A stretch of DNA of 62,698 bases, the filler included, from Pseudomonadota bacterium (GTDB lineage Bacteria; Desulfobacterota; Desulfobacteria; Desulfobacterales; JBDRRP01), in NCBI GenBank assembly GCA_043825735.1. It is 4 parts of 4 records of this genome, joined end to end, with 100 filler letters (N's around TTAATTAATTAA, not from the genome) between each part and the next. Parts side by side here need not be neighbours in the genome. Positions count along the whole stretch, not along the records: positions 24,353 to 45,407 come from JBDRRP010000060.1; 3 more parts are not named here. The stretch is one strand, 5' to 3'. Below, piece by piece: positions 7,109 to 58,005 of this stretch. Made by a program: the position numbers and the translations under genes. How positions within the stretch are numbered: position 1 is the stretch's first letter; each line of letters starts with the position of its first letter. The notes beneath the pieces were generated by a model. It was not told the DNA's origin. It made no database searches and saw only the letters and a program-made list of their open reading frames with translations.

Positions 7109-7130
7109 GCATAACAGTTATTAGACGGCA
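7109..7130 (-). other. attI-like cassette entry site
   Basis: TGCCGTCTAATAACT|GTTATGC, with no attC palindrome upstream. Confidence 0.6.
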
Positions 7131-7463
7131 ATCGCCATGTAGTTCGGAAACCTAAGTCGAAAAACTAACCGAACCGATATGAAATCAATCGGTTACGATT
7201 ACGGCCCTTATCGGGTTAGGCGGTGATTGCCGCCGGTCTCAGTTTAGGCCGCAAACACTTGATCGTTGACCGCTTAACTTCGGCGTGACGATGGCAGAAG
7301 CTGTAAAATTGGCTTATAAAAACGAGCAATTGGGTAGCGTTCTGATTATTTAAATTTTCTGCCGCAAAGTCGACGTATTTAGGATTGTTTTAAACTCAAC
7401 CCACTAATATCCCATAGTGGCATTTCTGCTTAGATCCGTGAGTCGTCTCCGGACTTGTAAACC

Positions 7464-7542
7464 GCAGAATATTTGCCATGTTCCTCTTTCAACCTGTTGA
7501 ACCGCCAATTGCAGAATGATAGGCGGAATGCGCGATTGTAAC
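7464..7542 (-). repeat. Conserved post-attC element, copy B
   Basis: GTTACAA...CGCCTATCATTCTGCAATTGGCGGTTCAACAGGTTGAAAGAGGAACATGGCAAATATTCTGC. Confidence 0.9.
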
Positions 7543-7583
7543 GCTGAGCTGAGGGGGCGGGCAACTTCACCCTAAAGCCTTCA
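7536..7583 (-). other. Deleted-cassette remnant (right half of an attC only)
   Basis: ...GCCCGCCCCCTCAGCTCAGCGTTACAA resembles L'/R'; only about 40 bp separate it from the previous attC. Confidence 0.6.
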
Positions 7584-7642
7584 AAATAACGTTTGAGCTG
7601 TTGGGCGCGGCTTTTTGCGTCCCCACCAGCGATATGTTAAGT
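7584..7642 (-). other. Integron attC site (59 bp)
   Basis: ACTTAAC-ATATC-GCTGGTGGGGACGC...GCGCCCAACAGC-TCAAAC-GTTATTT. Confidence 0.9.
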
Positions 7643-8374
7643 AGCCTTTTTATATATTTCAGCTTCGTAATCAACTTTTGGATCCAAACAATAATATACA
7701 AATGGTTTGGCTAATTCAGTTGTTTTGTAAACAGCGCTTTTGGTGATAGGATCGTCAGACATACCCATGGGTTTTACCAACCCCACATTAGACAGTGAAG
7801 AATACAAAACGACTAATTCTTTCCAACGAATATTTGCTGGGGCGCCACAAGATTCTTGGATTTCACCTGCAGGCACAACTTTATTCACTAATTCATGAAG
7901 GTTTAATTCCTCATCACCCATTACAACGGAAAAATCGTATAGATCCAAATCATTATGGGCAATATGCGATAAAAATTCTTCAATATGACCTGAAGGGAGC
8001 GATTCAAAAACTTTTAAAACCGCTTCTTCAATCACGTTGCTTTTCCCTGGGCTCTTAAGTCGATGCCGAATAAAGTTCCTTATTCGATTCAATTTTTCCC
8101 TTGGCTCGTTTTTGAAAATCGACAGGCATAATTGAGAAATTCCTCCCCGGAATATTGAATCGTTTAGCAAACTTTCTATAGGAACCTTTAAATCTTGAAT
8201 ATCTTTTTCAATGGATTTGATGATTTCATTAAATTTTTTCGTGTTATCTGCCTGAATAGCAGCCGTAAGGGTGCTTGAAATTGCTGGCCCAACAATCGGC
8301 ACGACGCCTACGATGGTTGATGTAAATGCCTTGACTGCTTCTTTGCCTGGAGAGGATAGTTTTATATTACTCAT
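7637..8374 (-). CDS. Hypothetical protein, gene cassette
   Basis: 245-aa ORF bounded by core GTTAAGT (8403-8409) and inverse core ACTTAAC containing the stop. Confidence 0.8.
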   Translation of the reverse strand: MSNIKLSSPGKEAVKAFTSTIVGVVPIVGPAISSTLTAAIQADNTKKFNEIIKSIEKDIQDLKVPIESLLNDSIFRGGISQLCLSIFKNEPREKLNRIRNFIRHRLKSPGKSNVIEEAVLKVFESLPSGHIEEFLSHIAHNDLDLYDFSVVMGDEELNLHELVNKVVPAGEIQESCGAPANIRWKELVVLYSSLSNVGLVKPMGMSDDPITKSAVYKTTELAKPFVYYCLDPKVDYEAEIYKKAT

Positions 8375-24252: not shown

Positions 24253-24352
24253 NNNNNNNNNNNNNNNNNNNNNNNNNNNNNNNNNNNNNNNNNNNNTTAA
24301 TTAATTAANNNNNNNNNNNNNNNNNNNNNNNNNNNNNNNNNNNNNNNNNNNN
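24253..24352. other. Assembly linker (contig join)
   Basis: N run + TTAATTAATTAA + N run. Confidence 0.99.
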
Positions 24353-25840: not shown

Positions 25841-26956
25841 TTGAGAACGCCTCACCGCGAAGCCGCGGCGGCTGCGCCGGAAATGGAATCCGCCGACATG
25901 GACGAATGGCAGCGCCAGATCACCGAGAGTATAACCACGAGCGCGGGGCTGACCCGGTATTTTCCGATTTCCGCACAAGCGGTGGACCCGGTGGCGGCCG
26001 AATATCCAATGCGGATCCCTCCCTACTGGCGCGCGCTCATGCGCGACCCTGACGACCCGTTTTACCGGCAGGCCGTACCCGATGCTATCGAGATGGCCGC
26101 AGGGCCCTGCGGCGCGGACCCGTTCAATGAAGCCGGGTTATCTCCGGCGCCCGGGCTCGTTCACCGATACCCGAACCGGGTATTGCTCCTGGTGACCCGG
26201 CAGTGCGCCATGTTCTGCCGTCACTGTATGCGCAAGCGGCGCACTGCGGATCCGGCGGAATCCTTCGACCCCGAAAGCGCCGTCGCCTATATCCGCTCCC
26301 GGCCCGAAATCCGGGAAGTCATCTTATCGGGCGGTGACCCGCTCATGCTGACCGATGCGCAGCTCGACCGGCTGCTGGCGGCGTTACATCGCGTGGAGCA
26401 TATTGCGGTCCGCCGCATTCATACCCGCATGCCCTGCACCCTGCCACACCGGGTGACGGCGCCCCTGGTTGACATGCTCCGCGGATACGCCCCACTGGTG
26501 GTGGTGACCCAATTCAATCACCCGGCGGAAATCACTCCGATCGCGGCGGCGGCCTGCGCCCGACTGGTGGACGCCGGCATACCCGTACTTTGCCAAACGG
26601 TGCTGCTCAAAGGGATCAACGACGATCCGGAAACACTGGCGCAGCTCATGAACGCGCTTCTGGCCATCCGGGTGCGTCCGTATTACCTTCACCACCCCGA
26701 CCCTGTCCGCGGGGCCCGTCATTTCCGGATCCCGGTTCGTAGCGGACTCGCCATTTACGGTGCGCTGCGCCGCCAGGTCTCGGGCATCGGTCTTCCCCAG
26801 TATGTGATGGACATCCCCGGTACGGACGGCAAGGTGCCGCTGCTGCCCGACTATGTCGCGCTCGCCGGTGACGGCGCCCTGATCGTTGTGCGTGCGGACG
26901 GTACGAAAACCACCATCCCGCTGGATGAATCAGAACCGGAGACAATGGGTGATTGA
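25841..26956 (+). CDS. KamA-family radical SAM aminomutase (lysine 2,3-aminomutase/EpmB-like)
   Basis: HRYPNR, CAMFCRHCMRKR, SGGDPL, GKVP motifs; start uncertain. Confidence 0.9.
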   Translation: MRTPHREAAAAAPEMESADMDEWQRQITESITTSAGLTRYFPISAQAVDPVAAEYPMRIPPYWRALMRDPDDPFYRQAVPDAIEMAAGPCGADPFNEAGLSPAPGLVHRYPNRVLLLVTRQCAMFCRHCMRKRRTADPAESFDPESAVAYIRSRPEIREVILSGGDPLMLTDAQLDRLLAALHRVEHIAVRRIHTRMPCTLPHRVTAPLVDMLRGYAPLVVVTQFNHPAEITPIAAAACARLVDAGIPVLCQTVLLKGINDDPETLAQLMNALLAIRVRPYYLHHPDPVRGARHFRIPVRSGLAIYGALRRQVSGIGLPQYVMDIPGTDGKVPLLPDYVALAGDGALIVVRADGTKTTIPLDESEPETMGD

Positions 26957-27416
26957 TCGCAACGGGGTGAGCGCCGTGGACGGATATGCCGGCAGCGTCG
27001 AAGCACTGCTCATTTCCATCTACGCCCGCCATGGCCAGATAGCGTCCATTCAGAACGCGCCATTCGTGGCGTTCAAGGAGTTGCCGGACAGCGGGCCCTA
27101 CGCCGGCGCCTTTGCCCGTCATGCGCAGCAGGCCTTGGCGCCCCATGTGGCGCTCATGGCAAAAAGGATGGATTTTCTGTGCGCGACCCTTGACAGCAGG
27201 GCAGTGAACCGCCCCACGGCAGGCGATGTTGCCTTTACCGTCCGCCCGTTGCCAAAGATTGCCCTGCATTACATCTGCTACCACGCCGACGATGATTTCC
27301 CGGCATCCGTGACCAGCCTGTATTCCCGGAACGCATCGGCGTTCATGCCCACCGATGCCTTGGCCGATGTGGGTGAATACACGGCCAAAGCCATCATCGA
27401 TCGGCTGGAAAAATAG
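26949..27416 (+). CDS. DUF3786-like protein
   Basis: FKELPDS.PY, PLPKI, DDDFPAS, DALADV motifs; overlaps the kamA stop. Confidence 0.7.
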   Translation: MIDRNGVSAVDGYAGSVEALLISIYARHGQIASIQNAPFVAFKELPDSGPYAGAFARHAQQALAPHVALMAKRMDFLCATLDSRAVNRPTAGDVAFTVRPLPKIALHYICYHADDDFPASVTSLYSRNASAFMPTDALADVGEYTAKAIIDRLEK

Positions 27417-31570: not shown

Positions 31571-32239
31571 TCACCGCACCGGGTCGCCGGGAGCCAGGGC
31601 CCTGCGGATAAATTGCATGATCCCGGCGGCGATGCGTTCGTCATCAACCAGCGCGCCCTCTCCGATAAACACCTTCATGCGCTCCATAAAATAATCCGAC
31701 GTGTAGGAAAACTGGAGCATCAATATAAGGTTGTCCAGGCAGAAGGCGGCCACTGCCGGATCCATGTCGCCGGCGATATGCCCGTCGGCAGCAGCCTCTG
31801 CTATCAAGTGTTGGTAAAGATGGGCGGAGATGGACTCCAGTTTGCCGGACAGCTGCCTGGAGAGGTGGGCAAGGCCTTCGGATGTCATATCCAGGTAGAT
31901 CTGGTTGAGCTGGGGGTATCGCCGGCTGTAGTCCTGGGCGGCGCGGATCATACGCTCGATTTTATCGAAAAACCCGCCGCTGTCGCCCGCAATGTCGGAG
32001 AGCACCTGCTCGAGCACGCCGTAGGCCCTGTCGATGACCGTTAGAAATAAATCGTCCTTGCGTTTGAAGTACTTGTACATGGCCCCGATGCTGATACCGG
32101 CGCCAAGGGCGATGGTGTTGATGTTGGCGGCGCTGAAACCCTTGGCGGCGAACTCGGAGACGGCGGCGCCGAGGATGCGCTCCTTCTTATCGGCTGGCAG
32201 CCGATCAAAGGCCGGGGTATAGTGGGGCTGGGAGTCCAT
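31571..32239 (-). CDS. TetR/AcrR-family regulator
   Basis: HTH IALGAGISIGAMYKYF.KDDL; divergent from the adjacent operon. Confidence 0.93.
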   Translation of the reverse strand: MDSQPHYTPAFDRLPADKKERILGAAVSEFAAKGFSAANINTIALGAGISIGAMYKYFKRKDDLFLTVIDRAYGVLEQVLSDIAGDSGGFFDKIERMIRAAQDYSRRYPQLNQIYLDMTSEGLAHLSRQLSGKLESISAHLYQHLIAEAAADGHIAGDMDPAVAAFCLDNLILMLQFSYTSDYFMERMKVFIGEGALVDDERIAAGIMQFIRRALAPGDPVR

Positions 32240-32288
32240 GGATGGTCACCTTACCGGCCGGTGTTTGCCGGACCGGGTTTTTGCTGGC

Positions 32289-32304
32289 GAGTGATTATTC
32301 ACTC
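32289..32304. promoter_or_regulatory. Putative TetR operator 1
   Basis: GAGTGA-TTAT-TCACTC, overlapping the likely -10 of tetR (minus-strand TTGACA at 32315-32320). Confidence 0.75.
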
Positions 32305-32367
32305 ACCCCGATCCTGTCAACACTTTTCTGTTGACTTTTGAAGCGGATGAGGTAGGTTGCGCCAAGA

Positions 32368-32383
32368 GAGTGAGCGTTCACTC
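32368..32383. promoter_or_regulatory. Putative TetR operator 2
   Basis: GAGTGA-GCGT-TCACTC, just after TTGACT...TAGGTT. Confidence 0.75.
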
Positions 32384-32422
32384 ACTACCTTTCATCACCC
32401 TAACGCCCCGGAGGCACAAACC

Positions 32423-33184
32423 ATGGAAACCGCATGGGTCAAGGCACGCCTCAACCTTTACGCCGTTATGCAAAACTTTGAAGAACTTGTCCGTTACGAC
32501 CCTGAATCGGCGGCCATGACCGCGGATTGGGATATCAGCCTCCAGTTTGCCATCCGGGGCGGCGACAGCGCCCATCTGGAATTCAGAAACGGACGGTGCC
32601 GGTTTTCCCGGGGGCCTCACCCGTCAGCAACGATCAGTCTATATTTCCTAACCCCCGGTCATTTCAATGCCATGATGGACGGCAAGGCGCCGCCAGTGCC
32701 GCTGCGGGGGCTGTTTCACATCCGGTTTCTCACCGGCGATTTCCAGCGTCTTTCCGACCGACTCGAATACTACCTGAAACCGACTGAAGAACGCATGGCC
32801 GATGCGGCTTACCGGGAACTCAACACCCGGATGAGCCTCAACTCAGCGGCCTTCAGCGTGCGGGAAATCGCTCTGGGAGATCCCATCGGCCGTCTCAACG
32901 CCGCCCATATGCCGCCCGGCGCCGTTGTTCTCAATATCCTCCCCGATGGACCGAGCGTGCATATCCGCTTCACCGTTGACGATATCATTGTGGAAAAAAC
33001 CGGAACGGACAACCCGATGGCACGACTTGAAATGAAAGACATGACCGTGGCCAGCGATTTTCTAAACGGCAAGCTGGACAGTTTTGCCGCCATCGCAGCC
33101 GGCGAAGTGGCCATCCGGGGGCAGATCCCCATGCTCGATGCCTTAAGTAACATCCTCGACCGCATCCCGCACTACCTGGGGTAA
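32423..33184 (+). CDS. Tandem SCP2-like (lipid-binding fold) protein
   Basis: C-terminal FLNGKLDSFAAIAAGEVAIRG is SCP2-like; GGAGG RBS. Confidence 0.65.
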   Translation: METAWVKARLNLYAVMQNFEELVRYDPESAAMTADWDISLQFAIRGGDSAHLEFRNGRCRFSRGPHPSATISLYFLTPGHFNAMMDGKAPPVPLRGLFHIRFLTGDFQRLSDRLEYYLKPTEERMADAAYRELNTRMSLNSAAFSVREIALGDPIGRLNAAHMPPGAVVLNILPDGPSVHIRFTVDDIIVEKTGTDNPMARLEMKDMTVASDFLNGKLDSFAAIAAGEVAIRGQIPMLDALSNILDRIPHYLG

Positions 33185-33210
33185 GGTCAACGCCCGAAAG
33201 GATCGACCCA

Positions 33211-34461
33211 ATGGAAACCTATTCGTTCAGTCGCTCTCAGGAACTTTTCTCCCGTGCGGCAAAGGTGATCCCCTGCGGCATCTACGGTCATTTCAGTCCT
33301 GCCCCCCTGGTGCCGCCCACCGACTACCCGTTTTACACGGAAAAAGCCGACGGCGCGCGCTTTTGGGATGTGGACGGTAACGAATTCATCGATTACATGT
33401 GCGCCTACGGCCCAATGGTGATGGGCTACAATCACCCGGAGGTGGACGGCGCCGCCATGGCCCAGCTCAAGCGCGGCAACTGCACCACCGGCGCACCGGC
33501 GGTGATAGTGGAACTGGCGGAAACCCTCGTGGATCTGATCCCGTCGGCCGACTGGGCCTTTTTCGCCAAAAACGGCGGTGATGTCACCAACTATGCCACT
33601 ATGGTGGCCCGCGATGCCACTGGCCGGCAAAAAATTGTCATGATCCAGGGGGGGTACCACGGCGTGGCGCCATGGATGCAGGCGCCGGGTCATCATGGGC
33701 TCATCGCCGCCGACGCCGAACACATCATCCGAATCCCCTGGAACGATGTGGCGGCCTTCCGGGAGGCCATTGACCGGCATCCGGGCGACATCGCCGGATT
33801 TATCGCCACCCCCTACCACGTACCGGCCTTTACCGACAGCATTCTGCCGGCGGACGGATACTGGCCCGCCATCGAAGCCCTGTGCCGGGAAAACGGCATC
33901 GTCCTCATCGTCGATGACATCCGCCACGGTTTTCGCCTCCACATGGGCGGCTCCTGCGAGTACTTCGGTTTCACCCCCGATCTGGTCTGCTTCTGCAAGG
34001 CCCTGGCAAACGGATATCCCATCTCCGCGCTCACGGGCCGCGAATCATTGAAAGCCGTGGCCGCCCGGGTGTTCTACACCGGCAGCTACTGGTTTTCAGC
34101 CGTTCCCATGGCGGCCGCGGTGGCGAACCTCCGGCTCATGGCCGCCATGGACGCCCCCCGACGCATGCTGGACATCGGTGAAAAATTATGCACAGGCATG
34201 GCCGATATCGCCCGGGGTTTCGGTTACACGCTGAAAGTTACCGGGGCCCCGTCCATGCCCTATCTGAGGATCACCAACGATCCCTCTCTGATGCTTCACC
34301 AGGACTGGTGCGGCGAGTGCACGAAACGGGGCGCCTTTTTCACCAGCCACCACAACTGGTTTGTCTCCACGGCCCACTCCGAAGAAGACATCCGCAAGAC
34401 CCTGGACATCGTTGAAGACGCTTTTTCAGCAGTGAAACGCAAATACGGAGACGCTTTTTGA
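33211..34461 (+). CDS. Class III PLP aminotransferase (GSA-aminomutase-like)
   Basis: WDVDGNEFIDY, GGYHG, DDIRHGFR, CKALANGYP motifs. Confidence 0.92.
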   Translation: METYSFSRSQELFSRAAKVIPCGIYGHFSPAPLVPPTDYPFYTEKADGARFWDVDGNEFIDYMCAYGPMVMGYNHPEVDGAAMAQLKRGNCTTGAPAVIVELAETLVDLIPSADWAFFAKNGGDVTNYATMVARDATGRQKIVMIQGGYHGVAPWMQAPGHHGLIAADAEHIIRIPWNDVAAFREAIDRHPGDIAGFIATPYHVPAFTDSILPADGYWPAIEALCRENGIVLIVDDIRHGFRLHMGGSCEYFGFTPDLVCFCKALANGYPISALTGRESLKAVAARVFYTGSYWFSAVPMAAAVANLRLMAAMDAPRRMLDIGEKLCTGMADIARGFGYTLKVTGAPSMPYLRITNDPSLMLHQDWCGECTKRGAFFTSHHNWFVSTAHSEEDIRKTLDIVEDAFSAVKRKYGDAF

Positions 34462-34530
34462 ACCGCGCGCCGGCCGCCGGCCGGCGGTGGTATCCGTCAA
34501 GCACTTTACCGATTGGATGGAGGACCGACA

Positions 34531-35373
34531 ATGCCCCTGACAGATGACGACCGAAGGCTGCTTTGCGAAAGGGCCCGTCAAAACCGGCTGGACATCATCG
34601 ACATCACGGCCTGGTCGGGCGGCGCCCATATCGGTGGCGCCCTCAGCATGGTGGAAATGCTCACCCTGCTTTATTACAACACCGCGCGCATCGACCCGGC
34701 CGTCCCTCAGGCACCGGACCGGGATCGCATCATCGTGAGCAAGGGTCACGGCGGTGTGGGTTACGCGGCCATGCTGGCGCGGCGCGGATACTTTGAATTC
34801 GATCTGCTCAAGCAATTCAACAAGTTCAAATCCCCTTTCGGCATGCATCTGGACAGCTGCAAGGTGCGCGGCGTGGATGTCTCCACCGGCTCCCTGGGAC
34901 ACGGGCTGCCAATGGCCGTGGGATTGGCGCTGGGGGCCCGGGTCCAAGGCAAAAAATGGCGCACCTACTGCATTCTGGGTGACGGCGAGTGCAACGAAGG
35001 CTCCGTCTGGGAGGCGGCCATGGCCGCCAGCCATTTCAACACCACCAACCTGATCACGTTCGTTGACCGCAACCGTCTCATGATCGATGGCACCACGGAG
35101 CAGGTGATGGGGCTCGAACCTTTTGCCGACAAGTGGCGGGCGTTCGGCTTTCACGTGGCCGAAGTTGACGGCCACTGCTTTGATGCCCTGGCGGATGCCG
35201 TCGCCTCGGCCCACGGGCGCACCGACGCCCCGGTGGTCATCATCGCCGACACCGTCAAGGGAAAAGGCGTCGACTTCATGGAAAACGAGGTCAAATGGCA
35301 CTACGGCGGGCTCGACACCGATCTCGCGGCAGCCGCCAGGGATTCTGTGAACCGCCGTTACGCCACCGCATGA
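34531..35373 (+). CDS. Transketolase N-terminal subunit
   Basis: SKGH, TGSLGHGL, GDGE...N ThDP motif, KGKG..WH. Confidence 0.93.
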   Translation: MPLTDDDRRLLCERARQNRLDIIDITAWSGGAHIGGALSMVEMLTLLYYNTARIDPAVPQAPDRDRIIVSKGHGGVGYAAMLARRGYFEFDLLKQFNKFKSPFGMHLDSCKVRGVDVSTGSLGHGLPMAVGLALGARVQGKKWRTYCILGDGECNEGSVWEAAMAASHFNTTNLITFVDRNRLMIDGTTEQVMGLEPFADKWRAFGFHVAEVDGHCFDALADAVASAHGRTDAPVVIIADTVKGKGVDFMENEVKWHYGGLDTDLAAAARDSVNRRYATA

Positions 35374-35430
35374 CCCCATCGCAGCGGGCCGCGCGCCACC
35401 GGGCGCCCCGCCGCCACAGGAGAGACCACC

Positions 35431-36441
35431 ATGAGTGAAGGATTGACCTGGACCGTTTACGATGCCGACGCCATGACCCAGGCGGAAATCTACGGAAGGG
35501 TGCTCTGCGAGTTGGGCGAGCGGCACCCGGACATCGTGGGGCTGTCGGCCGATCTGGCCAATTCCACCAAGATCGGCGCATTCGGGAAGAAGTTTCCGGA
35601 GCGGTTTTTCAATGTGGGCATCGCCGAACAGAATCTCTTCGGCATCGCCGCAGGCCTGGCCAAGTCGGGGCTAAAACCCATTGTCTCGACCATGGCCGTG
35701 TTCAGCGCCATGAGGGCCTGCGAACAGGTGCGCACCGACATCTGCTACCAGAATCTGAATGTGAAGATCATCGCCACCCACGGCGGCGCATCTTTCGGGC
35801 AGGCCGGCACCACCCACCACTGCACCGAAGATCTGGCCATCATGCGCAGCTTCGCCAACATGACCGTCATCGTGCCGGCCGACGGCATCGAAACGGCCAA
35901 TGCCGTGCGGGCCGCCGTCGACTGGCCCGGCCCCGTGTATATCCGCATCGGCCGGGGATTCGAGCCCCGGTATTATGACACCGAAGACTACGGGTTCGCC
36001 ATCGGCCGCGCCGTCGAGATCCACCCGGGCACCGATATCACCCTCATCTGCTGCGGGGTCACGGTGCTCCAGGCCGCCGAGGCCGCCCGCCACCTGGCCG
36101 ACACCGATGGTCTGAGCATACGAGTGATCAACATGCACACCATCAAGCCGCTGGACACCGAAGCGGTCATGCGCGCCGTCACCGACACCCGGCGCATCAT
36201 CACCTTGGAAGAGCACACCACCCAGGGCGGTCTGGGCAGCGCGGTGGCCGATGTCATCGCCACCAGCGGCAAGGGCTGCGCGTTCACCAAAGTGGGGATC
36301 CCCGACTGCTTCTGCGAAGTGGGCTATCCCGAAGATCTCTACAGCCACTACGGACTGGACGCCGACGGGATCATCGCAAAAGTACGGGAGATCATGCAGC
36401 GCGACTTTGAAGAAGACGACGACTGGGAGGATGAGATCTGA
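35431..36441 (+). CDS. Transketolase C-terminal subunit
   Basis: NVGIAEQN, RACEQVR, GTTHH, EEH...GGLGS motifs. Confidence 0.93.
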   Translation: MSEGLTWTVYDADAMTQAEIYGRVLCELGERHPDIVGLSADLANSTKIGAFGKKFPERFFNVGIAEQNLFGIAAGLAKSGLKPIVSTMAVFSAMRACEQVRTDICYQNLNVKIIATHGGASFGQAGTTHHCTEDLAIMRSFANMTVIVPADGIETANAVRAAVDWPGPVYIRIGRGFEPRYYDTEDYGFAIGRAVEIHPGTDITLICCGVTVLQAAEAARHLADTDGLSIRVINMHTIKPLDTEAVMRAVTDTRRIITLEEHTTQGGLGSAVADVIATSGKGCAFTKVGIPDCFCEVGYPEDLYSHYGLDADGIIAKVREIMQRDFEEDDDWEDEI

Positions 36442-37217
36442 TGACGGCCATCGATCGCGACCGGATGGCCGCCCGCCTCTTTCTCAGGGCGGTGCTGCCG
36501 GTAATGAAAATTCTGTTGACCGAGGATGCGAAAATGGCGTCCCGCTTTGCCGAGGCCAACTTTCGCATCTCCTTTCACGCTCCTGACGAACGCGGGCCGG
36601 TGGGGGCCTGCGTTAAATTGGATCACGGCGCCTTCAGCATCGCTTTCGCCCCCTGCGAGGACGCCGAAATTGTCTTTCGGTTTTCCAGCCTGGCCAAAAT
36701 GAACGCCTTTTTCGCCGGGAAACCCGTGGTGCCGGCCATCCGCGGATGGTGGCGCCTGGGCTTGCTCATAAAGGCCGTCTCCCTGCTCATGGGGCTTAAA
36801 ATCCTTATGCCCACTGCCGACCCCAAGGACGCCGGCCGCCGCCGGCTCAAGGTGAAGATGACCTTTTACATGATCACCACGGCCTTGAGCCAATACAACA
36901 AGGGGGAAGACCCTGAAATGGCCCAGTGGACGGCCCGGCAGCCCGAGCGGATCTACCAGATCACCGTGGATGAGGACATCGCCGCCTACCTCCGGGTCAA
37001 GGCGGGAAAGACCAAAGCGGGCCGCGGTGTCTACGGCCGGCGAAAACCCTTTGTCCACATGTGCTTTAGCGGCGTGGAGGGCGCCTATCCAATTGTTATG
37101 AACCAGGTCAACATGGTGGACGCGGTGCGAGACGGATTGCTTCGAATCGATGGCTCCCCGGAGTACGCCCGGGACATGGGCGATTTCATGATGCGCATCC
37201 AGGAACTGATCACCTAG
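36441..37217 (+). CDS. Hypothetical protein, SCP2-like fold
   Basis: Similar size and pattern to 32423-33184 (MNAFFAGK; DAVRDGLLRIDG); translationally coupled. Confidence 0.6.
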   Translation: MTAIDRDRMAARLFLRAVLPVMKILLTEDAKMASRFAEANFRISFHAPDERGPVGACVKLDHGAFSIAFAPCEDAEIVFRFSSLAKMNAFFAGKPVVPAIRGWWRLGLLIKAVSLLMGLKILMPTADPKDAGRRRLKVKMTFYMITTALSQYNKGEDPEMAQWTARQPERIYQITVDEDIAAYLRVKAGKTKAGRGVYGRRKPFVHMCFSGVEGAYPIVMNQVNMVDAVRDGLLRIDGSPEYARDMGDFMMRIQELIT

Positions 37218-37362
37218 CGTCCATCCAGAAACGGCATCTTTTGGCCCAGAGCGGCGTTTTCGCACTTTTCGAAATCCTCAAAATAGCGCCGCTATTCCTC
37301 CGGTTTCGAAAATGCTCAAGCCTTGCTCTGAACCAAAATCTACCATTTCTGGACGGACACTG
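37215..37362. repeat. MITE-like palindromic element
   Basis: GTCCATCCAGAAA...TTTCTGGACGGAC; homologous partial copy at 52829-52940. Confidence 0.75.
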
Positions 37363-37382
37363 TATATCGGAGACTAACAGCA

Positions 37383-38999
37383 ATGCACAGTCAGCACCGA
37401 CCGACCCTGCTCAAGAACGCAACGATCATCGACGGCACCGGTGCACCCGGATTTCCCGGAGACGTCCTGATTGTCGGCGGCAGCATTGCCGATGTGGCCC
37501 CCAAGATAATGGCAACAGAGGCCGAAACCGTCGATTGCGGCGGCAGGGTCGTTGCGCCGGGCTTTATCGACATGCACTCCCACAACGACTGGTTTCTGCC
37601 GTCGCCCGACCAGGAGATTTTCACCCGGAGTTTTCTGGATCAGGGCATCACGGCATTCGTCGGCGGCAACTGCGGATTCAGCGCGGCCAGCCTTGATCCG
37701 GAAAGCACCCATCACCGGACGGCGGCAGACAATCTGTTCCGCTCGGCCGGCATCACGCCGGACTGGCAGGGACTGCCCGGCTATGCCGCACGGCTGGCAG
37801 ATGCCGGCGCCACGACCAACATGGCGCTCCTGGCCGGCCACGGTACGGCGCGGGCCAACATCTGCGGATTCCAGTCCGCACCGCTTGACGGCGATCAGCG
37901 AAATAGACTGCTCTACACGCTGGAAAAAACCATGGACGACGGCGCCGTCGGGGTTTCCCTGGGCCTTCAGTACGAACCGGGCATCTTCGCCGGCCGGGAA
38001 GAGCTCCTGGCCGTGGCGCGTCTGGTGAAGCAAAAAGACAAAATCCTCACCGTCCACGCCCGGGCCCTGTCGGCCCTTTCCGGCACCTACCCCCTCAAGC
38101 CGTTCGGCCGGGCCCACAATCTGCTCGCCATCGAAGAGATGCTGTCCATCGCCCGCGAGACCGGGGTGCGGCTCCAGTTCTCACACCTCATCTTCGTCGG
38201 CAAAAAGTCATGGTCGACCCTCGATGAAGCGCTGTCGATCTTCGATGGCGCCATCGCCGACGGGGTGGACGTCAAATTCGACACCTACTCCCACCACTGC
38301 GGGGCGTCGCTCATCCACGTGGTGCTGCCCGGGTGGTTTCTGGCAAAGGTGCCCGAAGCCTACCACCGGACGGCGGACCGCCTTCGCCTGTGGGCAGAGA
38401 TGCAGGCCATGTCGCCGCTGCTGGGATTCGGCTATGGCGACATCTTGCTCACCTTTGCCGACGACGACGCATTCAACGCCCACAACGGCCGTTTCGTCAC
38501 CGATATCGCCGCCGCCCGGGGCACGTCCAATTTCCGCACCTTCATGGACATCACCATTGCCAGCCACGGACTGGCGCGGGTGCTCATGTTCCGCTACAGC
38601 ACACCCGAAATCGTCGGCGAGTTGATGCGCCAGCCGGCGTCCCTGTTCATGACCGATGCCTGGATCGAGCGACGCGGCATCCAGAACCCGGCCGCCTTCG
38701 GCGCCTTTCCCCGGTTTCTCCAGCGCGTGCGCGAGGAGAAGATCATCTCCCTGGAAGCGGCGGTCCACAAAATGACCGGAGCGGCTGCCGACCGGTTCGG
38801 TCTCACCGGCCGGGGCGTTTTAAAGCGGGGCAACGCCGCGGACGTCGTCGTTTTCGACGCCGGCGCCGTAGCCGATGGGACATCGCTGACTGCCACCGAC
38901 CGCGCCCCCACTGGCATCAACCATGTCTTCGTCAACGGCGTCCCCATGGCCGGCGACCTTGCGACGCCGGGAAAACGTCCCGGCAGTCTATTGATGTAA
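37383..38999 (+). CDS. N-acyl-D-amino-acid deacylase family amidohydrolase
   Basis: PGFIDMHSHND, GNCG, FPRFL, AVHKMTG, ADVVVFD motifs. Confidence 0.9.
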   Translation: MHSQHRPTLLKNATIIDGTGAPGFPGDVLIVGGSIADVAPKIMATEAETVDCGGRVVAPGFIDMHSHNDWFLPSPDQEIFTRSFLDQGITAFVGGNCGFSAASLDPESTHHRTAADNLFRSAGITPDWQGLPGYAARLADAGATTNMALLAGHGTARANICGFQSAPLDGDQRNRLLYTLEKTMDDGAVGVSLGLQYEPGIFAGREELLAVARLVKQKDKILTVHARALSALSGTYPLKPFGRAHNLLAIEEMLSIARETGVRLQFSHLIFVGKKSWSTLDEALSIFDGAIADGVDVKFDTYSHHCGASLIHVVLPGWFLAKVPEAYHRTADRLRLWAEMQAMSPLLGFGYGDILLTFADDDAFNAHNGRFVTDIAAARGTSNFRTFMDITIASHGLARVLMFRYSTPEIVGELMRQPASLFMTDAWIERRGIQNPAAFGAFPRFLQRVREEKIISLEAAVHKMTGAAADRFGLTGRGVLKRGNAADVVVFDAGAVADGTSLTATDRAPTGINHVFVNGVPMAGDLATPGKRPGSLLM

Positions 39000-39136: not shown

Positions 39137-42100
39137 CTATTTTGTCAGGGCCAGCGGAAAGTCCATTCCCCGTGAGTCGACCACCGGATATTGCGCCTCT
39201 TGTTTGTATTTCTTCGTCAGATCCGGAAGGTGTTCCTCCACATACCCCATGAGCTTTCGGACCGTGACAACCCCCGTCCCCCCCGCGGCCTTGCCGCGGA
39301 GCCCCTCCAGAAGCGTGTAGGTGAAGACACCGTGGCCAAGCGCCTGAACTTCCGCGGCATACTGATCCTTTGCCGAGGCTGCGATGACGTGCACCCCGGT
39401 GGCCCGCGAGAGTTGAGACAATGATTTCCTGTCCTCGAACCCCCTTAAGGCCACCAGCACGGCGCCCGACTTGCAGGCATCGATCAGGACCAGGATCTTT
39501 TGTGCGGGAATGGTTTTGATATGCTCCGAAATCGTATCCGATGATATCCCTTTTGCCTGGATATCTTCCGGTCGCTCCGGATACGTGAGGTCATGTGGAA
39601 TGAAATACCACTTATCGTCCAAGCTCTCCCCGTGCCCGGCGAGATAGATCAGCACTGCATCCTGGAGTTGGGTGTTTTGAAGCTGTTTGAACGTCGCGAT
39701 CACGTTTTCTTTTGTGGCCTGCTCGTTGTAAACCTCGATGACGGCCACCTTCTTGAATATCCTCTGGCCGCTGTGAGCGAAAAACCCGCTGATCCCTCTG
39801 GCGTCGGGCTCTGCGTAGTTAAGATTCAAGGCCGGGTTGCGATAGCGGTTGATCCCTACGACGAGCACATACAGCGACACATCTGCCGGCGGCGCGGAAA
39901 GCGTCAGGGCGAGTTCTGCGGGATTAGATTCAGTCCTGTCCTTGCTGAAACCGATGGCACGGAAATAATTGGCCCCCTCCACCAGCGTAACGGTGTAGGT
40001 CTTCGTTACGACATCCCCCCGTGGAACAAGCGTGATCGCCCTGCGGTCTTCGCCGATCGCCTTCTCATTGTGATAGAGCCTGATCTCATCGATGCCGCCA
40101 CCGGTGTCTTTGGCGGACACGGTGACCGAAATGGTATCCGTTGATACGGGTGCATCCGGCACCGGAGCAGTAATGGTCACCGCCGGCGGCGTCATAAACC
40201 CTTTGCGGATATCGGCAACCGCTGCGCTCTCCCTGCCCTGAAGCGCCAAGGCGACACGAACCGGATTGAAAAAGGTTTCGTAGAAATTGTCGATGGCCAA
40301 GGCCTGATTGCCGACACGCACATTCAGATGCCTTGCCCCGTTCGGCGAGGCATTGAAGTACCCTGCCGGGGTGACGACGATCCATTCGCCGTCGGAGAAA
40401 CCGGCGAACTGGGCGATCTCTTTCCCGGTGGCCAGGTTCCAGAGCCGGGTCGACCCGTCGTGGCTTGCTGAGACCACGCTCTTGCCGTCCGCAGTGACGG
40501 CGACCGCCTTAACCCAGCCCGTATGCCCACTCAGCACCCGGATCTCCTCACCGCTCGCAACATCCCAGACTCTGAGCACATCATCGCTGCCCCCGGTGAT
40601 GGCAACCCTGCCGTCCCGGCTAAAGGCAATGGCATCGAGCCACGAGAGCGGTGTAATCGTTTTTCTCCCGAAGGCCCTGATCTGCTCGCCCGTCGCCATG
40701 TCCCAGAAACGGATCGGGTCGTCCATCGAGTCCATGCCCGCGGAAATGACGAACCGGCCGTCCGGACTGATGGCGACGGATGTAACGGCGCCCGTGTGTC
40801 CCTGGAGGGTCCTGATCGCCGTACCTGTGCCGATGTCCCACAGTTTGATTGTCTTATCGTTGCTGCCGGAGGCGGCATAACGGCCGTCCGGACTGACGGC
40901 GATGGCATTCACGGGCTTCGTGTGCCCAGTGAAACGCCGTAGAATCGAATCCCCCCCCTGCCCGATCCCCACACGTCCGACGGTTCGCGTCTTCCCATCG
41001 TCGTCCTCTAGCTTGGCCGCAGCGGGCACAATCGCGATATCGAGCGCCTGTTCGTTGCGGCGGATGGTGAACGTGAGGCGTTTACCGGCGTTTTTCTGAA
41101 CGATGCCGACAAAATCGTCCCAGAAGAACACCGGCGCGCCATCTATGGCGACGATGAGATCCCCTGTCAGCAGGCCGGCTTTTTCGGCCGACGAGCCCTT
41201 GCCGATCTGACCCGCGAGGATGCCCCGGAGGGCGCGCGAGATGTCCCACAGTTTCAGGGTGGAATCGCCCCCGCCGGTAATGGCAAACCGGCCGTCCGGC
41301 GTGAACGCCACCGCGTTGACCGTGCCCGATTCACCATAGAGGGTCTTTTCGGCCCTGCCGCTCGCCGCATCCCAGAGTTTCAGCGTCAAGTCGCCGTCTT
41401 GCAGCAAGACATACCGGCCATCCGGACTGACAGCGACAGACCGGCTCGAGCCGGAAAAGCCTTCCAATGATCCTATTTCCCGGCCGTTAACGATATCCCA
41501 GCGCCTCACGCCGGCGACGGCAAATCTCCCGTCACCGCTGACGGCCACCGAGGAGACAGAATCGGTATTTCCTTCAAACGCCCGGATCTGCCTGCCATCT
41601 GTGATATCCCAGAGTTTGAGGGTCCTATGGCTGCCCGAAACGGCATGCCGGCCGTCCGGACTCATGGCGACCGCGGTCACCCAATTGCGATGGCCTTCGA
41701 ATCTTCTGACCTCCCTTCCGGTGTCGGCATCCCAGAGCCTCAGCGTATCGTCGACGCTGCCGGAGAGAACATACCGGCCATCGGGGCTGATGGCCGCGGC
41801 CAGCACCCTTTCCCCGTGCCCTTTGAGCGTCGTGATTTCCCGGCCGCTGGCGACATCCCAGACTTTGACGCTCTTGTCATCACTGGCTGAAACGATGCGT
41901 TTGCCATCTGCGCTGATGGCGATGGTTCCGATGCTGCGTGAATGCCCCGCGAACACCCGGATCTGCCTGCCGGTGGCCACTTCCCAAAGACTCAGGACAT
42001 GACCGTCACCGCCGCTGTTTGAGACGACAAACCGGCCGTCCGGCGTAATTGCCAAGGCATTGACTCCACGATAATCACCAAAGGCCCTGATGATCCTGCC

Positions 42101-42631
42101 GGTGGCAATTTCCCACAAGGTCAATGTCTTGTTTTTCACATCCCACGAGCCGTCCGACCCGGTGATCAGATGCCGCCCATCCGGTGTGAAAACCACGGAC
42201 TTCACCGGCTGCGAATGCCCCGTAAAGGATCTGAGTTCCCGGCCGCTGGTCAACTCCCAGAGAATGAGGTTTTTGCCGGTATTGCCACCAAAGAACCTGC
42301 AGGCGGAAGCGGCGTAGCGCCCATCCGGACTGACAGCCACAGACACGACATTATCAGGATGCCCTTTGAATGTCCGAATTTCCCTGCCGCTGTCGATATC
42401 CCACAGCTTCAGGGTTCTGTCGTCACTGCCGGAAATGACAAATTTGCCGTCGGCGCTGATGGCGATGGCGTTGATGCTGCTGGAATGCCCCAGTTGCAGG
42501 AATAGCTCCGGCGGCTCGGCGGCCGGGCACGTGGTGGACAGGAGGATAAACAAAAAAAGAATTACGGAAATCAAGCAAACGGCGGCGGGTCGATTCGGAA
42601 ATGAAAACGCACTTTGTGGCATGCTTGTCAC
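39137..42631 (-). CDS. WD40-repeat / PDZ / caspase-like (C14) protein
   Basis: Signal/TM segment, about 15 GH...WD repeats, PDZ (SSAEKAGLLTGDLIVAIDG), caspase AGHG and DACKSG. Confidence 0.92.
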   Translation of the reverse strand: MTSMPQSAFSFPNRPAAVCLISVILFLFILLSTTCPAAEPPELFLQLGHSSSINAIAISADGKFVISGSDDRTLKLWDIDSGREIRTFKGHPDNVVSVAVSPDGRYAASACRFFGGNTGKNLILWELTSGRELRSFTGHSQPVKSVVFTPDGRHLITGSDGSWDVKNKTLTLWEIATGRIIRAFGDYRGVNALAITPDGRFVVSNSGGDGHVLSLWEVATGRQIRVFAGHSRSIGTIAISADGKRIVSASDDKSVKVWDVASGREITTLKGHGERVLAAAISPDGRYVLSGSVDDTLRLWDADTGREVRRFEGHRNWVTAVAMSPDGRHAVSGSHRTLKLWDITDGRQIRAFEGNTDSVSSVAVSGDGRFAVAGVRRWDIVNGREIGSLEGFSGSSRSVAVSPDGRYVLLQDGDLTLKLWDAASGRAEKTLYGESGTVNAVAFTPDGRFAITGGGDSTLKLWDISRALRGILAGQIGKGSSAEKAGLLTGDLIVAIDGAPVFFWDDFVGIVQKNAGKRLTFTIRRNEQALDIAIVPAAAKLEDDDGKTRTVGRVGIGQGGDSILRRFTGHTKPVNAIAVSPDGRYAASGSNDKTIKLWDIGTGTAIRTLQGHTGAVTSVAISPDGRFVISAGMDSMDDPIRFWDMATGEQIRAFGRKTITPLSWLDAIAFSRDGRVAITGGSDDVLRVWDVASGEEIRVLSGHTGWVKAVAVTADGKSVVSASHDGSTRLWNLATGKEIAQFAGFSDGEWIVVTPAGYFNASPNGARHLNVRVGNQALAIDNFYETFFNPVRVALALQGRESAAVADIRKGFMTPPAVTITAPVPDAPVSTDTISVTVSAKDTGGGIDEIRLYHNEKAIGEDRRAITLVPRGDVVTKTYTVTLVEGANYFRAIGFSKDRTESNPAELALTLSAPPADVSLYVLVVGINRYRNPALNLNYAEPDARGISGFFAHSGQRIFKKVAVIEVYNEQATKENVIATFKQLQNTQLQDAVLIYLAGHGESLDDKWYFIPHDLTYPERPEDIQAKGISSDTISEHIKTIPAQKILVLIDACKSGAVLVALRGFEDRKSLSQLSRATGVHVIAASAKDQYAAEVQALGHGVFTYTLLEGLRGKAAGGTGVVTVRKLMGYVEEHLPDLTKKYKQEAQYPVVDSRGMDFPLALTK

Positions 42632-45407: not shown

Positions 45408-45507
45408 NNNNNNNNNNNNNNNNNNNNNNNNNNNNNNNNNNNNNNNNNNNNTTAATTAATTAANNNNNNNNNNNNNNNNNNNNNNNNNNNNNNNNNNNNN
45501 NNNNNNN
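45408..45507. other. Assembly linker (contig join)
   Basis: N run + TTAATTAATTAA + N run. Confidence 0.99.
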
Positions 45508-46062: not shown

Positions 46063-47463
46063 TTATTTGCCGAAGATCTTCACCGGGCGGGTGGTGTCGC
46101 CCGTGGCATTGGGAAAGTCCTTGGCAATATAGGCCTTCTGGCCCGTTTCGATCAGGTGGTTAGCTTCTTCCATGTAGTTGTTGAAGCGCAGCTTGCATTC
46201 ATAAAAGCCGTGCCACCAGGCGTAGTCGGGCGCCATCATCATAGTCCCCATGCGGGCGCGGCGGCCTTCATGGTGCCAGAGTTCGTAGAACTCCACTTCA
46301 AGGCGCTCGTCGAAGTACTTGGTCTTGTCCAGAAGCCCCTTTTCGTAGAGTTCGTCGAGTTTGGCCTTGGCCGGTTTGTAGTAAACCTCGTTATACTCAC
46401 CGATGGCCTTGTCATAGCTGCCGTAGAAATCATCAATCCAGGAATCACCGTGGCAGGAGCGGCAGACGTTTTTCATTTTTTCGCGCTCTACCTGCCAGTC
46501 GGTCCCTGACGGGAATGGCTTGAAGTCCTGGGGGCGCACGGTCAACGGTGCCTGAGTTTCCCAGGAAATGCGCTCTGTGACATCATGGGTCCCCATGACC
46601 TTGCCGGTGCCTGACATGTGACAGGCCGCGCAGGTGGGCGCGCGGTAGTCGGTGCCGGGCGTCCAGGCGCCGGGAGCCGACTTGAAGTTGGACTCATTTT
46701 TAAAGGCGCTGTGGATCGTTCCGTGCTTGGACTCCTGGTAGATTTCAATCTGGGGATGATCCGGCCCCAGGTGGCACGAGTCGCAGGCCTCGGGTTGACG
46801 GGCCTCGGCCACAGAGAACCGGTGGCGGGTGTGGCAGGAGGTGCACGATCCCTTGCTGCCGTCCAGGTTCAGACGCCCCACACCAACATTGGGCCAGGTG
46901 GCCGGGTCGAGTTTGCCCTTGTCGTCGATGGCAACCACGGTGCCGTGACAGTGCAGACAGCCGACCTTTCGCTCAGTGTCGGAGTTCATCCCCTTGTTCA
47001 GCCAGGGGTCGAGCTTCCACATGATCTCAATGGTATTGGCGTGCTTGCTCTTGCTGTACTGGGTCACCTCGTCGGGATGACAGCGGGAGCAATCCTTGGG
47101 CGTCACGATGGCGGCGATGGGCACTTTGTATTTTTCTTCACCGTAGGGCAGGTCCTTTCGGGCATAATACTTTTCGTGTCCCAGGGCGACGTCCTTGTCG
47201 CCGGGCTGCGCCAAATGGCAGTCCAGGCAGGTAATATTGGCGCTGGCATGGCGGCTCATGGACCAATCTCCGAAGAGCCCCGGGTTGGTGGCCTTGTGAC
47301 ATTCGATGCAGGCGACCGCTTCCGGGGGAATACTTCTTTCGATGCGGTATTCCTTCACCTTGGGGAAATTGGGCTGCTGAGCCTGGGCGCCGATCATCGT
47401 GCCGGAAAGCATCAAACCGGCCGCCAGCAACCCAACGCTCATCAACAACGGGTATCGCCTCAT
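46063..47463 (-). CDS. Octaheme cytochrome c, hydroxylamine oxidoreductase family (epsilonHao-like)
   Basis: Eight CxxCH motifs, HLGPDHPQIEIY, WHHEGRRARMG...APDYAWWHG; signal peptide from ATG 47463. Confidence 0.88.
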   Translation of the reverse strand: MRRYPLLMSVGLLAAGLMLSGTMIGAQAQQPNFPKVKEYRIERSIPPEAVACIECHKATNPGLFGDWSMSRHASANITCLDCHLAQPGDKDVALGHEKYYARKDLPYGEEKYKVPIAAIVTPKDCSRCHPDEVTQYSKSKHANTIEIMWKLDPWLNKGMNSDTERKVGCLHCHGTVVAIDDKGKLDPATWPNVGVGRLNLDGSKGSCTSCHTRHRFSVAEARQPEACDSCHLGPDHPQIEIYQESKHGTIHSAFKNESNFKSAPGAWTPGTDYRAPTCAACHMSGTGKVMGTHDVTERISWETQAPLTVRPQDFKPFPSGTDWQVEREKMKNVCRSCHGDSWIDDFYGSYDKAIGEYNEVYYKPAKAKLDELYEKGLLDKTKYFDERLEVEFYELWHHEGRRARMGTMMMAPDYAWWHGFYECKLRFNNYMEEANHLIETGQKAYIAKDFPNATGDTTRPVKIFGK

Positions 47464-47521
47464 CTCTTGCGCTCCTTTCGGTTGTTTTGCAGTCAGCCGG
47501 AGGGATTTTCCCCCCCGTCTA

Positions 47522-48088
47522 TTACAATTGACGCAACCCCTTGGCCTGATAAGGGGTCTTTCGGTACTGTTTGTACATGACGCTGCCGCGGTCGGTGTGA
47601 ACCAGGTCGTAGTGGCAGTCGATGCATTTTTTCTCATAGCCCGGCCTGGCATAGATTACAGTACGGTGGGCCAGCATGGCACCGCGCTTGTCGGGCATGT
47701 CGAGAATGTTGCGGTGGCATTTCTGGCATTCGGCATTGCTGAAGGCGGCGTAGGCTTTGGCGCGCTGCTCGGCACGGTCGTAGGTGCCCGGCTTCAGGAA
47801 GTGTACCGCCACGTCTTTGATGCCGTGGTAGGTTTTGGCGAAAAAGAAGTTGAACGTGTCATGGGGGGGCGGCAGGTGGCAGTCCATGCAATCGGCCACA
47901 AACCCCTGCGGATTGTTGACATGGGTCGAGGTCCGCCACGCCATCACCGCTGGTTGAATTTCATGGCAGGAGGCACAGAACTCCGGCGTGGAGGTGCGTA
48001 CCATCGTGTAGTAGGTCATGCTGAACAGGGGAAAGGCGATGGCAACGCCGAATGCAACCAGGGCCGAAGCCAGCAGGACTTTTTTCAT
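47522..48088 (-). CDS. NapC/NirT-family tetraheme cytochrome c
   Basis: N-terminal TM helix, TSTPEFCASCHE, four CxxCH. Confidence 0.92.
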   Translation of the reverse strand: MKKVLLASALVAFGVAIAFPLFSMTYYTMVRTSTPEFCASCHEIQPAVMAWRTSTHVNNPQGFVADCMDCHLPPPHDTFNFFFAKTYHGIKDVAVHFLKPGTYDRAEQRAKAYAAFSNAECQKCHRNILDMPDKRGAMLAHRTVIYARPGYEKKCIDCHYDLVHTDRGSVMYKQYRKTPYQAKGLRQL

Positions 48089-48184
48089 GGGGTTTCCCCG
48101 TACTGGGATGAAATGCAATTGAGATTAAATGGCCGGACAGACCGATAATATTGCCAAATATACCAGGGAAGGCTATTAAGGGGC

Positions 48185-57905: not shown

Positions 57906-58005
57906 NNNNNNNNNNNNNNNNNNNNNNNNNNNNNNNNNNNNNNNNNNNNTTAATTAATTAANNNNNNNNNNNNNNNNNNNNNNNNNNNNNNNNNNNNNNN
58001 NNNNN
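57906..58005. other. Assembly linker (contig join)
   Basis: N run + TTAATTAATTAA + N run. Confidence 0.99.

Follow-up and report, generated by a model that had tools for sequence, protein, structure and literature searches.

A 2018 review gives the long-chain-base phosphate lyase as required for sphingolipid breakdown (PMC6148460), the compound that Pseudomonas SphBC makes from sphingosine has yet to be identified (PMC11398299), and the aminotransferase FumI converts a sphinganine analogue to 2-keto-HFB1 using pyruvate (PMC3136697). PMC9858248, PMC7711896 and PMC11398299 served as background only. We describe here an operon from a Desulfobacterales genome (JBDRRP01 in the GTDB lineage; deposited as a Pseudomonadota bacterium, GCA_043825735.1), which lies in a stretch of 62,698 nucleotides referred to below as the window. 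It encodes two tandem-SCP2 proteins (SCPa and SCPb), a FumI-family aminotransferase, a transketolase split into N- and C-terminal subunits and a candidate deacylase, with a divergent gene for a TetR-family repressor. Five of these genes form a cassette that is a real, conserved operon, hitherto undescribed in the literature searched. That search gave no account of the cassette, or of transaminase-transketolase catabolism of sphingoid bases, in the papers within its scope, which took in little of the subscription literature and not the original report of the fum cluster. The operon very probably serves the deamination and thiamine diphosphate (ThDP)-dependent cleavage of a lipid amino alcohol. 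Our preferred reading, drawn from sequence and given a probability of about 0.55, is that sphingoid bases would be freed by deacylation, transaminated, and cleaved by ThDP chemistry to a fatty aldehyde.

A conserved five-gene cassette and its products

All seven open reading frames of the operon region were confirmed. Six are co-oriented on the plus strand, as the initial annotation had them, and the TetR gene, alone on the minus strand, is the divergent seventh. The likely true start codons are at 32423 for SCPa and 34531 for the transketolase N subunit. Pfam searches of the window proteins returned TetR_N, SCP2 (SCPa, E 1.8e-7), Aminotran_3, Transketolase_N, Transket_pyr with Transketolase_C, and Amidohydro_3/1, in agreement with the family labels first given to the repressor, the aminotransferase, the two-subunit transketolase and the amidohydrolase. 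A scan using the aminotransferase as query gave 590 confirmed relatives, the best 80 of which are the loci counted below. Of these 80 loci, 52 have the full row of SCPa, aminotransferase, transketolase N, transketolase C and SCPb, in this order, as do 46 of the 57 with sufficient flank; judged from these counts, the order is kept beyond chance. The deacylase gene occurs in none of the 80, though 43 complete loci had at least 1.9 kb of sequence after SCPb, and the conserved unit is therefore five genes, not the six initially proposed. Record titles for the cassette name Desulfobacterota, Spirochaetota, Bacteroidota, Bacillota, Hydrogenedentota, Myxococcota and Actinomycetota; the nearest related loci are from Desulfobacterales (aminotransferase identity 77%), and cultured carriers include Desulfosarcina widdelii, Desulfatibacillum alkenivorans, Draconibacterium aestuarii and Lutispora saccharofermentans. 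Evenly drawn genome samples had SCPb in 17 of 151 members of the same order, and a match to it in 7 of the 399 members scored from a clostridial class.

The closest solved relative of the aminotransferase is FumI (6HBS, 340 bits; best HemL, 192 bits), and its identity to the FumI-like protein of L221, a Sphingopyxis fum-like cluster recovered by motif scan, is 40.6%. At 118 positions conserved in its clade, FumI agrees at 93 and HemL at 64. A tree of 205 sequences, made with FastTree only after two duplicates were dropped, places all 84 SCP2-linked aminotransferases in a single 95-leaf clade (support 0.909), sister to a 106-leaf clade (support 0.935) that contains FumI; FumI itself falls outside the SCP2-linked clade. 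Identification as a true HemL was rejected: the protein scores 210.5 bits with TIGR00713, below the cut-off of 527.3, and a separate HemL-like gene (on contig C127, presumably HemL-like from its motif) lies elsewhere in the genome and outside the clade. The class III label thus stood and gained the FumI likeness. Members of the wider FumI family are often found beside ThDP enzymes, namely other split transketolases, E1 fusions and acetolactate-synthase-like proteins, and from this we infer a family logic in which a vicinal amino alcohol would be converted to a ketol and then cleaved with ThDP.

Both transketolase subunits retain the catalytic apparatus. The ThDP motif, the catalytic Glu (59/59) and the His26/66/100/261/473 array (E. 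coli numbering, from PMC11387542) are present; in the N subunit the His26, His66 and His100 equivalents occur in 63 of 63 sequences and His261 in 61. The substrate site differs: the Asp469 equivalent is Ala in 58 of 59 sequences, Gly in one and Asp in none, and the Arg358 equivalent (residue 18 of the C-terminal subunit) is kept in 8/59. The remaining phosphate-site equivalents are nearly invariant (Ser385 and His461, 59/59; Arg520, 58/59). The pattern therefore departs from that of a canonical sugar-phosphate transketolase, with Asp469 and a full Arg358/Ser385/His461/Arg520 site, and the two other transketolases of the same genome retain the Asp469 and Arg358 equivalents. The mapping to E. 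coli positions, made by way of human and own-genome transketolases, is in part presumed. His100 marks donors with a C1 hydroxyl (PMC13663882), and in the E. coli enzyme the D469A exchange lifts the ratio of propanal to glycolaldehyde activity from 0.04 to 0.20 (PMC3657141). Since D469A favours propanal (PMC3657141; residue roles, PMC11387542), the residues would fit one phosphorylated partner and one aldehyde lacking a 2-hydroxyl.

SCPa and SCPb, of 253-258 residues, each contain two alpha/beta repeats in one chain and are full-length paralogues (hhalign 99.8%). The initial annotation had called both proteins SCP2-like, and an SCP2 fold was found for each. PF02036 matched 48 of 50 SCPa family members; SCPb itself had no match in the Pfam search, and SCP2 was matched at E<=0.05 in 35 of 46 aligned members of its family. 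Foldseek matches of the AlphaFold2 model of SCPa (predicted local distance difference test score, pLDDT, 94.9) are SCP2 domains, and those of the AlphaFold model of SCPb (pLDDT 95.4) are SCP2 folds; in the VIA comparison of SCPb with SCP2 structures the best match had Z 10.9 and a root-mean-square deviation of 2.7 over 109 aligned residues. No solved structure covering the whole of either chain was among the Foldseek matches (best TM score by query <=0.36), and matches in an ESM Atlas search were limited to unnamed or SCP2 clusters. Each paralogue is tied to one enzyme. SCPa lies immediately 5' of the aminotransferase in 73 of the 80 loci, three of the seven misses being contig ends, and where the operon is split (L470, L471, L474, L478, L483, L485, L488) SCPb remains with the transketolase and SCPa with the aminotransferase.

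A physical basis for the second pairing is suggested by structure prediction. The transketolase C subunit ends in an acidic tail in which W332, D334 and E335 are invariant in 47 sequences; the tail was singled out from conservation ahead of the modelling, and persists even where SCPb does not closely follow. The predicted complex of the C subunit with SCPb scored 0.67 (runs 0.67, 0.73 and 0.17) against 0.01 for the best control, with tail residues 331-336 lying on SCPb residues 190-195 and their neighbours. The runs share at least 58% of contacts and the partners have pLDDT of at least 87. Of 157 solved pairs 116 attain the score mark used, as do 2 of 215 mismatched ones; these counts carry over to the present pair only roughly. 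The models support a predicted docking of the transketolase on SCPb by way of the acidic tail.

Several variant clusters were seen. In L036 (4277-11744) and L091 (3400-9224) the SCPa-aminotransferase pair stands beside an 844-residue E1 alpha-beta fusion; the L091 protein, a dehydrogenase-E1 fusion, has an N-terminal SCP2 domain (E 3e-4, searched with the domain alone), and in the corresponding part of the similar L036 protein Pfam found nothing. The L036 cluster adds an acyl-CoA-lyase-like ThDP enzyme and a zinc alcohol dehydrogenase. A Paenibacillus locus (L038:7811-12038) carries an amino-acid permease, SCPa, the aminotransferase and TetR, with no transketolase nearby. Pseudohongiella-like gammaproteobacteria (L081-L090) have an aminotransferase from within the SCP2 clade with no SCP2 genes, and a POT-family transporter upstream. 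In Blastococcus (L122:1869-9999) a FumI-family aminotransferase lies near an S1P (sphingosine-1-phosphate)-lyase-like gene, an amidase-like reading frame, alanine dehydrogenase, a different split transketolase and an aldolase-like reading frame.

A proposed route and its alternatives

In the preferred reading the operon is repressed by TetR and serves to break down long-chain 2-amino-1,3-diols, of which sphingoid bases are the likeliest. As an accessory first step, the N-acyl group would be removed by the amidohydrolase or by a ceramidase encoded elsewhere in the genome. On the precedent of FumI, the aminotransferase, served by SCPa, would then use pyruvate as acceptor for the 2-amino group; the products would be a 1,3-dihydroxy-2-ketone and alanine, the latter probably recycled by alanine dehydrogenase. 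The transketolase residues suggest that the split enzyme, its acidic tail tethered to SCPb, would cleave the C2-C3 bond, passing a glycolaldehyde unit to an aldose phosphate and releasing the fatty aldehyde. Neighbouring genes suggest that an aldehyde dehydrogenase, aldehyde oxidoreductase, ene-reductase or alcohol dehydrogenase may lead this product to beta-oxidation or aldehyde reduction. The initial annotation had proposed catabolism of a ceramide-like amino-diol. The transketolase residues, the accessory genes and the co-occurrence data described below fit its release of a fatty aldehyde; the deacylase proved accessory, and the stereochemistry at C3 had been overlooked.

Co-occurrence was examined in 151 genomes of the same order, 17 with the cassette and 134 without. 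Neutral ceramidase was found in 7/17 compared with 3/134 (4/11 compared with 3/67 by family, p 0.006), and either ceramidase or a close deacylase in 11/17 compared with 18/134, while two controls were not enriched (lipase, 6/17 and 43/134; wax synthase, 4/17 and 20/134). The p-values overstate these associations, because kin genomes are not independent. Among 10 hand-picked cassette genomes of other phyla, ceramidase searches gave one strong match, two weak matches over the cut-off, and seven under the cut-off or without a match; the endoglycoceramidase marker PF18564 was found in 1 of the 151 genomes, too rarely to be informative.

Neither a kinase nor a fold-type-I lyase of the S1P lyase pathway is among the seven operon genes, and to this extent the kinase- and lyase-independent route first suggested stands. 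An S1P-lyase-like gene (named, as throughout, by sequence likeness to solved S1P lyases) lies on another contig of the same genome (G000:C15:36360-37553, L388), so the cassette route would be an addition and not a replacement. That gene has a divergent TetR gene and a membrane protein gene beside it, and S1P-lyase-like genes occur in 40 of the 151 genomes. Mutual exclusion of cassette and S1P lyase was considered and rejected, the co-occurrence counts showing none.

Several observations weigh against sphingoid bases as the substrate, and one is stereochemical. Because sphingoid bases are 2S,3R (PMC6148460), the ketol derived from sphinganine would, by our own Cahn-Ingold-Prelog assignment, be 3R, and transketolases, split ones included, were S-selective in almost all cases tested (PMC3657141, PMC13663882). 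D469Y is known to reverse the selectivity; for Ala no reversal was found in the available text (PMC3657141). An epimerase or spontaneous isomerisation of the ketol could solve the 3R problem, and a candidate epimerase, of the VOC fold, is present in just 7/80 loci. The precedent is also imperfect: FumI belongs to a sister clade at 41% identity, the available FumI data do not include sphinganine, neither SCPa nor SCPb occurs in any of 47 FumI-proximal loci, and many FumI-family relatives adjoin ABC transporters, aldolases and sugar kinases. Since many relatives are thus polar in context and have no SCP2 genes, likeness to FumI alone names no lipid. Asp469 is likewise lost in 10 of 10 non-SCP2 transketolases beside FumI-family genes, so this loss is not lipid-specific. 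One of the three complex runs scored low. Among the genomes, alkylsulfatase, a non-sphingolipid marker, is enriched too (11/17 compared with 28/134); PF04734, the neutral/alkaline ceramidase family, had no match in a search of the genome itself or in 10 of the 17 cassette genomes; and S1P-lyase-like genes occur in 8/17 cassette genomes compared with 32/134, and in the present genome.

The first alternative keeps the chemistry and changes the substrate to another long-chain vicinal amino alcohol, such as a capnine-type sulfonolipid backbone, a threo or 1-deoxy base, or a fungal or algal sphinganine analogue. The SCP2 folds and aldehyde-handling neighbours indicate a lipid without naming one, a 3S ketol would match the usual selectivity of transketolase, the known FumI substrate is a 1-deoxy analogue (PMC3136697), and the co-occurrence of alkylsulfatase suits such a substrate as well. 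The invariant His100 and His66 equivalents favour a C1 hydroxyl, however, and the enrichment of ceramidase holds within alkylsulfatase-positive genomes (6/11 compared with 2/28), so that we consider this alternative unlikely, though it is the strongest of the four.

It appears improbable that the operon breaks down a polar amino sugar or aminopolyol and that the SCP2 proteins serve as structural subunits of their partner enzymes instead of lipid carriers. FumI-family relatives do have class II aldolases, four-carbon acid sugar kinases and ABC transporters of the peptide type beside them, L013 has a divergent row of FGGY kinase, aldolase II and aminotransferase, and the Ser385, His461 and Arg520 equivalents that bind phosphate are retained; but SCP2 genes are missing from most of these polar-looking loci (L093 excepted), the five-gene cassette has no recurrent sugar kinase or sugar ABC transporter beside it, and Asp469, the selector of sugar-like aldehydes, is gone in all 59 sequences. 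Biosynthesis is less probable again. As both reactions are reversible, a fatty aldehyde might be extended by a C2 unit through the transketolase and the ketol then aminated by the aminotransferase, so that a sphingoid-like base or a small natural product would arise independently of serine palmitoyltransferase, and a transketolase-like enzyme is paired with an aminotransferase in anisomycin biosynthesis (PMC11387542). Against this stand the TetR control with co-regulated alanine dehydrogenase and transhydrogenase, the aldehyde-oxidising and beta-oxidation neighbours, and cassette loci at which no acyltransferase, carrier protein or exporter recurs. Least probable is a mainly detoxifying role, compatible with and not opposed to the preferred reading, with SCPa and the aminotransferase rendering antimicrobial long-chain bases harmless and the transketolase module adding an optional salvage step: sphingoid bases inhibit bacteria (PMC11398299), and 9/80 loci, seven of them with SCPa, have no transketolase within at least 6.5 kb downstream of the aminotransferase, but the full cassette predominates where there is room for it and the transketolase module is located away from the aminotransferase in some genomes.

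Breakdown of sphingoid bases remains our preferred reading. A fuller proposal, held more tentatively and at somewhat short of even odds, is that anaerobes possess a phosphorylation-independent sphingolipid catabolism comprising a D-aminoacylase-type ceramidase, a FumI-type transaminase and a (3R)-tolerant lipid transketolase, in which each lipid-facing enzyme would have its own tandem-SCP2 subunit and an acidic docking peptide would recruit that of the transketolase.

The candidate deacylase gene, operator-like sites and surrounding sequence

The deacylase has the amidohydrolase fold, with aligned His/Cys/Asp motifs that we take to be metal ligands, and its nearest solved relatives are D-aminoacylases (about 160 bits). 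It has no match to PF04734, and may still act like a ceramidase. As a core gene of the cassette it was rejected: besides its absence from the 80 loci, the cassette was beside none of 13 deacylase loci at the level of the order (1.5 kb flanks) and one of 79 metagenome deacylase loci. In that one, L462, from a distant lineage, the whole cassette (aminotransferase 44% identical) is followed tightly by genes for a zinc alcohol dehydrogenase, an old yellow enzyme (OYE) and the deacylase. Close homologues of the deacylase (>300 bits, a cut picked after a gap in the scores was seen) occur in 20 of the 151 genomes. An S1P-lyase-like gene is present in 18 of these 20 compared with 22 of the other 131 (11/13 compared with 12/65 by family), the alkylsulfatase control being 14/20 compared with 25/131; in G125 the deacylase and S1P-lyase-like genes are 2.3 kb apart. 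The link of the deacylase to the cassette across genomes is weak (5/20 compared with 12/131, p 0.053). The 165-bp spacer 5' of the gene is nearly all taken up by a repeat, about 20 bp being left otherwise. This repeat, which resembles miniature inverted-repeat transposable elements (MITE) or repetitive extragenic palindromes (REP), is 146 bp long with 53-nt terminal inverted arms, and has dozens of copies genome-wide with identity of up to 97%.

Features of the operon region, in positions of the window
Feature	Coordinates	Strand	Basis
TetR-family repressor, divergent from operon	31571..32239	-	PF00440
Palindromic operator-like site 1, GAGTGA-N4-TCACTC	32289..32304	.	2 matches in window vs 0.04 expected
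Palindromic operator-like site 2, 40 bp upstream of SCPa start	32368..32383	.	same motif
SCPa, tandem SCP2-fold protein, partner gene of aminotransferase	32423..33184	+	PF02036 in family, AlphaFold2 model, Foldseek, position
FumI-family class III aminotransferase, not HemL	33211..34461	+	PDB match, tree
Split transketolase, N-terminal ThDP-binding subunit	34531..35373	+	PF00456, closest structure 6YAK
Split transketolase, C-terminal subunit, remodelled pocket and invariant acidic tail	35431..36441	+	residue alignments
SCPb, tandem SCP2-fold protein, predicted transketolase partner; start overlaps upstream stop	36441..37217	+	
Dispersed palindromic repeat, MITE/REP-like, before deacylase	37215..37361	.	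90 blastn hits on 45 contigs, 50 of them spanning 120 bp or more, with the self hit and reverse self-matches counted in
D-aminoacylase-family metallo-amidohydrolase, accessory candidate deacylase	37383..38999	+	Pfam, PDB matches

The operator-like palindrome, with at most one mismatch, was found in 30 of the first 80 loci, mostly directly before the SCPa gene, and a TetR homologue is near the cassette in 20 of the 80, either upstream and divergent or downstream. In cassette loci it is found upstream of alanine dehydrogenase (L006, L007) and pntA (L015, L024, L304, L308) as well, consistent with a catabolic direction and with pyruvate accepting the amino group. As a clue to the substrate the motif was rejected, being common to many unrelated TetR genes, mostly in actinobacterial TetR-ABC pairs. 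A position weight matrix scan of the genome itself gave no further convincing regulon member, and promoter and terminator scans gave matches at chance level.

Alanine dehydrogenase is encoded in 7 of the 80 loci and PntA in two more; besides the VOC-fold protein mentioned above, a class 3 (fatty) aldehyde dehydrogenase occurs in two. OYE reductases adjoin the cassette in L009, L011 and L078, and if sphingosine were the substrate a 2-enal would be expected, to which an ene-reductase is suited. In further genomes its neighbours are aldehyde oxidoreductase, acyl-CoA dehydrogenase, hydroxyacyl-CoA dehydrogenase and FadL. In L013 (3584-8735; also L312, L319 and L320) a row of genes for FGGY kinase, class II aldolase, a 491-residue class III aminotransferase and a major facilitator superfamily transporter runs divergent from the cassette and is linked to related TetRs; it could represent a transaminase-kinase-aldolase route for an aminopolyol or phytosphingosine. 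In L004 (4641-7058) and its close relatives L002 and L005, an unassigned glycyl radical enzyme gene converges on the cassette-adjacent alanine dehydrogenase gene.

The window joins four contigs, with N spacers at 24253-24352, 45408-45507 and 57906-58005, and the operon is on the second (C60). Converging on the deacylase gene is that of a 1164-residue multi-WD40 protein (39137-42631, minus strand), with WD40-type matches only among the Pfam matches listed. Elsewhere, positions 2001-8000 have a GC content of 38% (57% genome-wide), a lysine-2,3-aminomutase-like radical SAM gene followed by DUF3786 lies at 25841-27416, and a multihaem cytochrome with a NapC/NirT partner is encoded at 46063-48118 (minus strand).

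Relation to described systems

If the proposed route is correct, anaerobes of sediments, digesters and the gut use a second way of breaking down sphingolipids, the labels HemL and transketolase are wrong for many genes that now bear them, and FumI acquires a setting with a natural substrate. In biocatalysis, where transketolase and transaminase are currently joined by hand into cascades that yield amino-diols, there would also be a use for a natural transketolase that handles C16 aldehydes and on which a lipid-carrier subunit docks.

The individual components each have described relatives. The deacylase shares the amidohydrolase fold and aligned metal-ligand motifs with D-aminoacylases (1M7J, 3GIP) and PpOngB (9KB1), but is distant from them, forming a separate subfamily whose genome profile tracks S1P-lyase-like genes. 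SCPa and SCPb match the fold of the SCP2 domains of human SCP2, UbiJ and the alkylsulfatase C-terminus, and are unlike them in having two such domains per chain and two paralogues per operon, each with its own enzyme. The transketolase shares the two-gene architecture of the split enzyme of Carboxydothermus hydrogenoformans (6YAJ/6YAK), and the ThDP motif, catalytic Glu and His array of that enzyme and of canonical ones; it differs from all of these in the exchange of Asp469 for Ala, the general loss of Arg358 and the additional acidic tail.

As a set, the genes can be compared with the fum cluster of Sphingopyxis (6HBS; PMC3136697), which has an aminotransferase of the same family; its relative L221, like the cassette locus, has TetR and a ThDP enzyme, and has a zinc alcohol dehydrogenase also. 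The ThDP enzyme of the fum cluster is acetolactate-synthase-like, whereas that of the cassette is a transketolase, and the cassette locus lacks the carboxylesterase and TonB receptor of the fum cluster. AniP and AniQ of anisomycin biosynthesis (PMC11387542) likewise combine a transketolase-like enzyme without Asp469 and an aminotransferase. That system is biosynthetic, with a single-chain enzyme and an aromatic keto-acid donor; its His array, retained in the cassette, is absent, and SCP2 proteins are not mentioned in the available text. Compared with the sphingosine kinase/S1P lyase pathway (PMC6148460), the cassette route would break the same C2-C3 bond and yield the same long-chain aldehyde, but would do so without phosphorylation or a pyridoxal phosphate-dependent retro-aldol step, the nitrogen leaving as alanine and the C2 unit entering sugar-phosphate metabolism.

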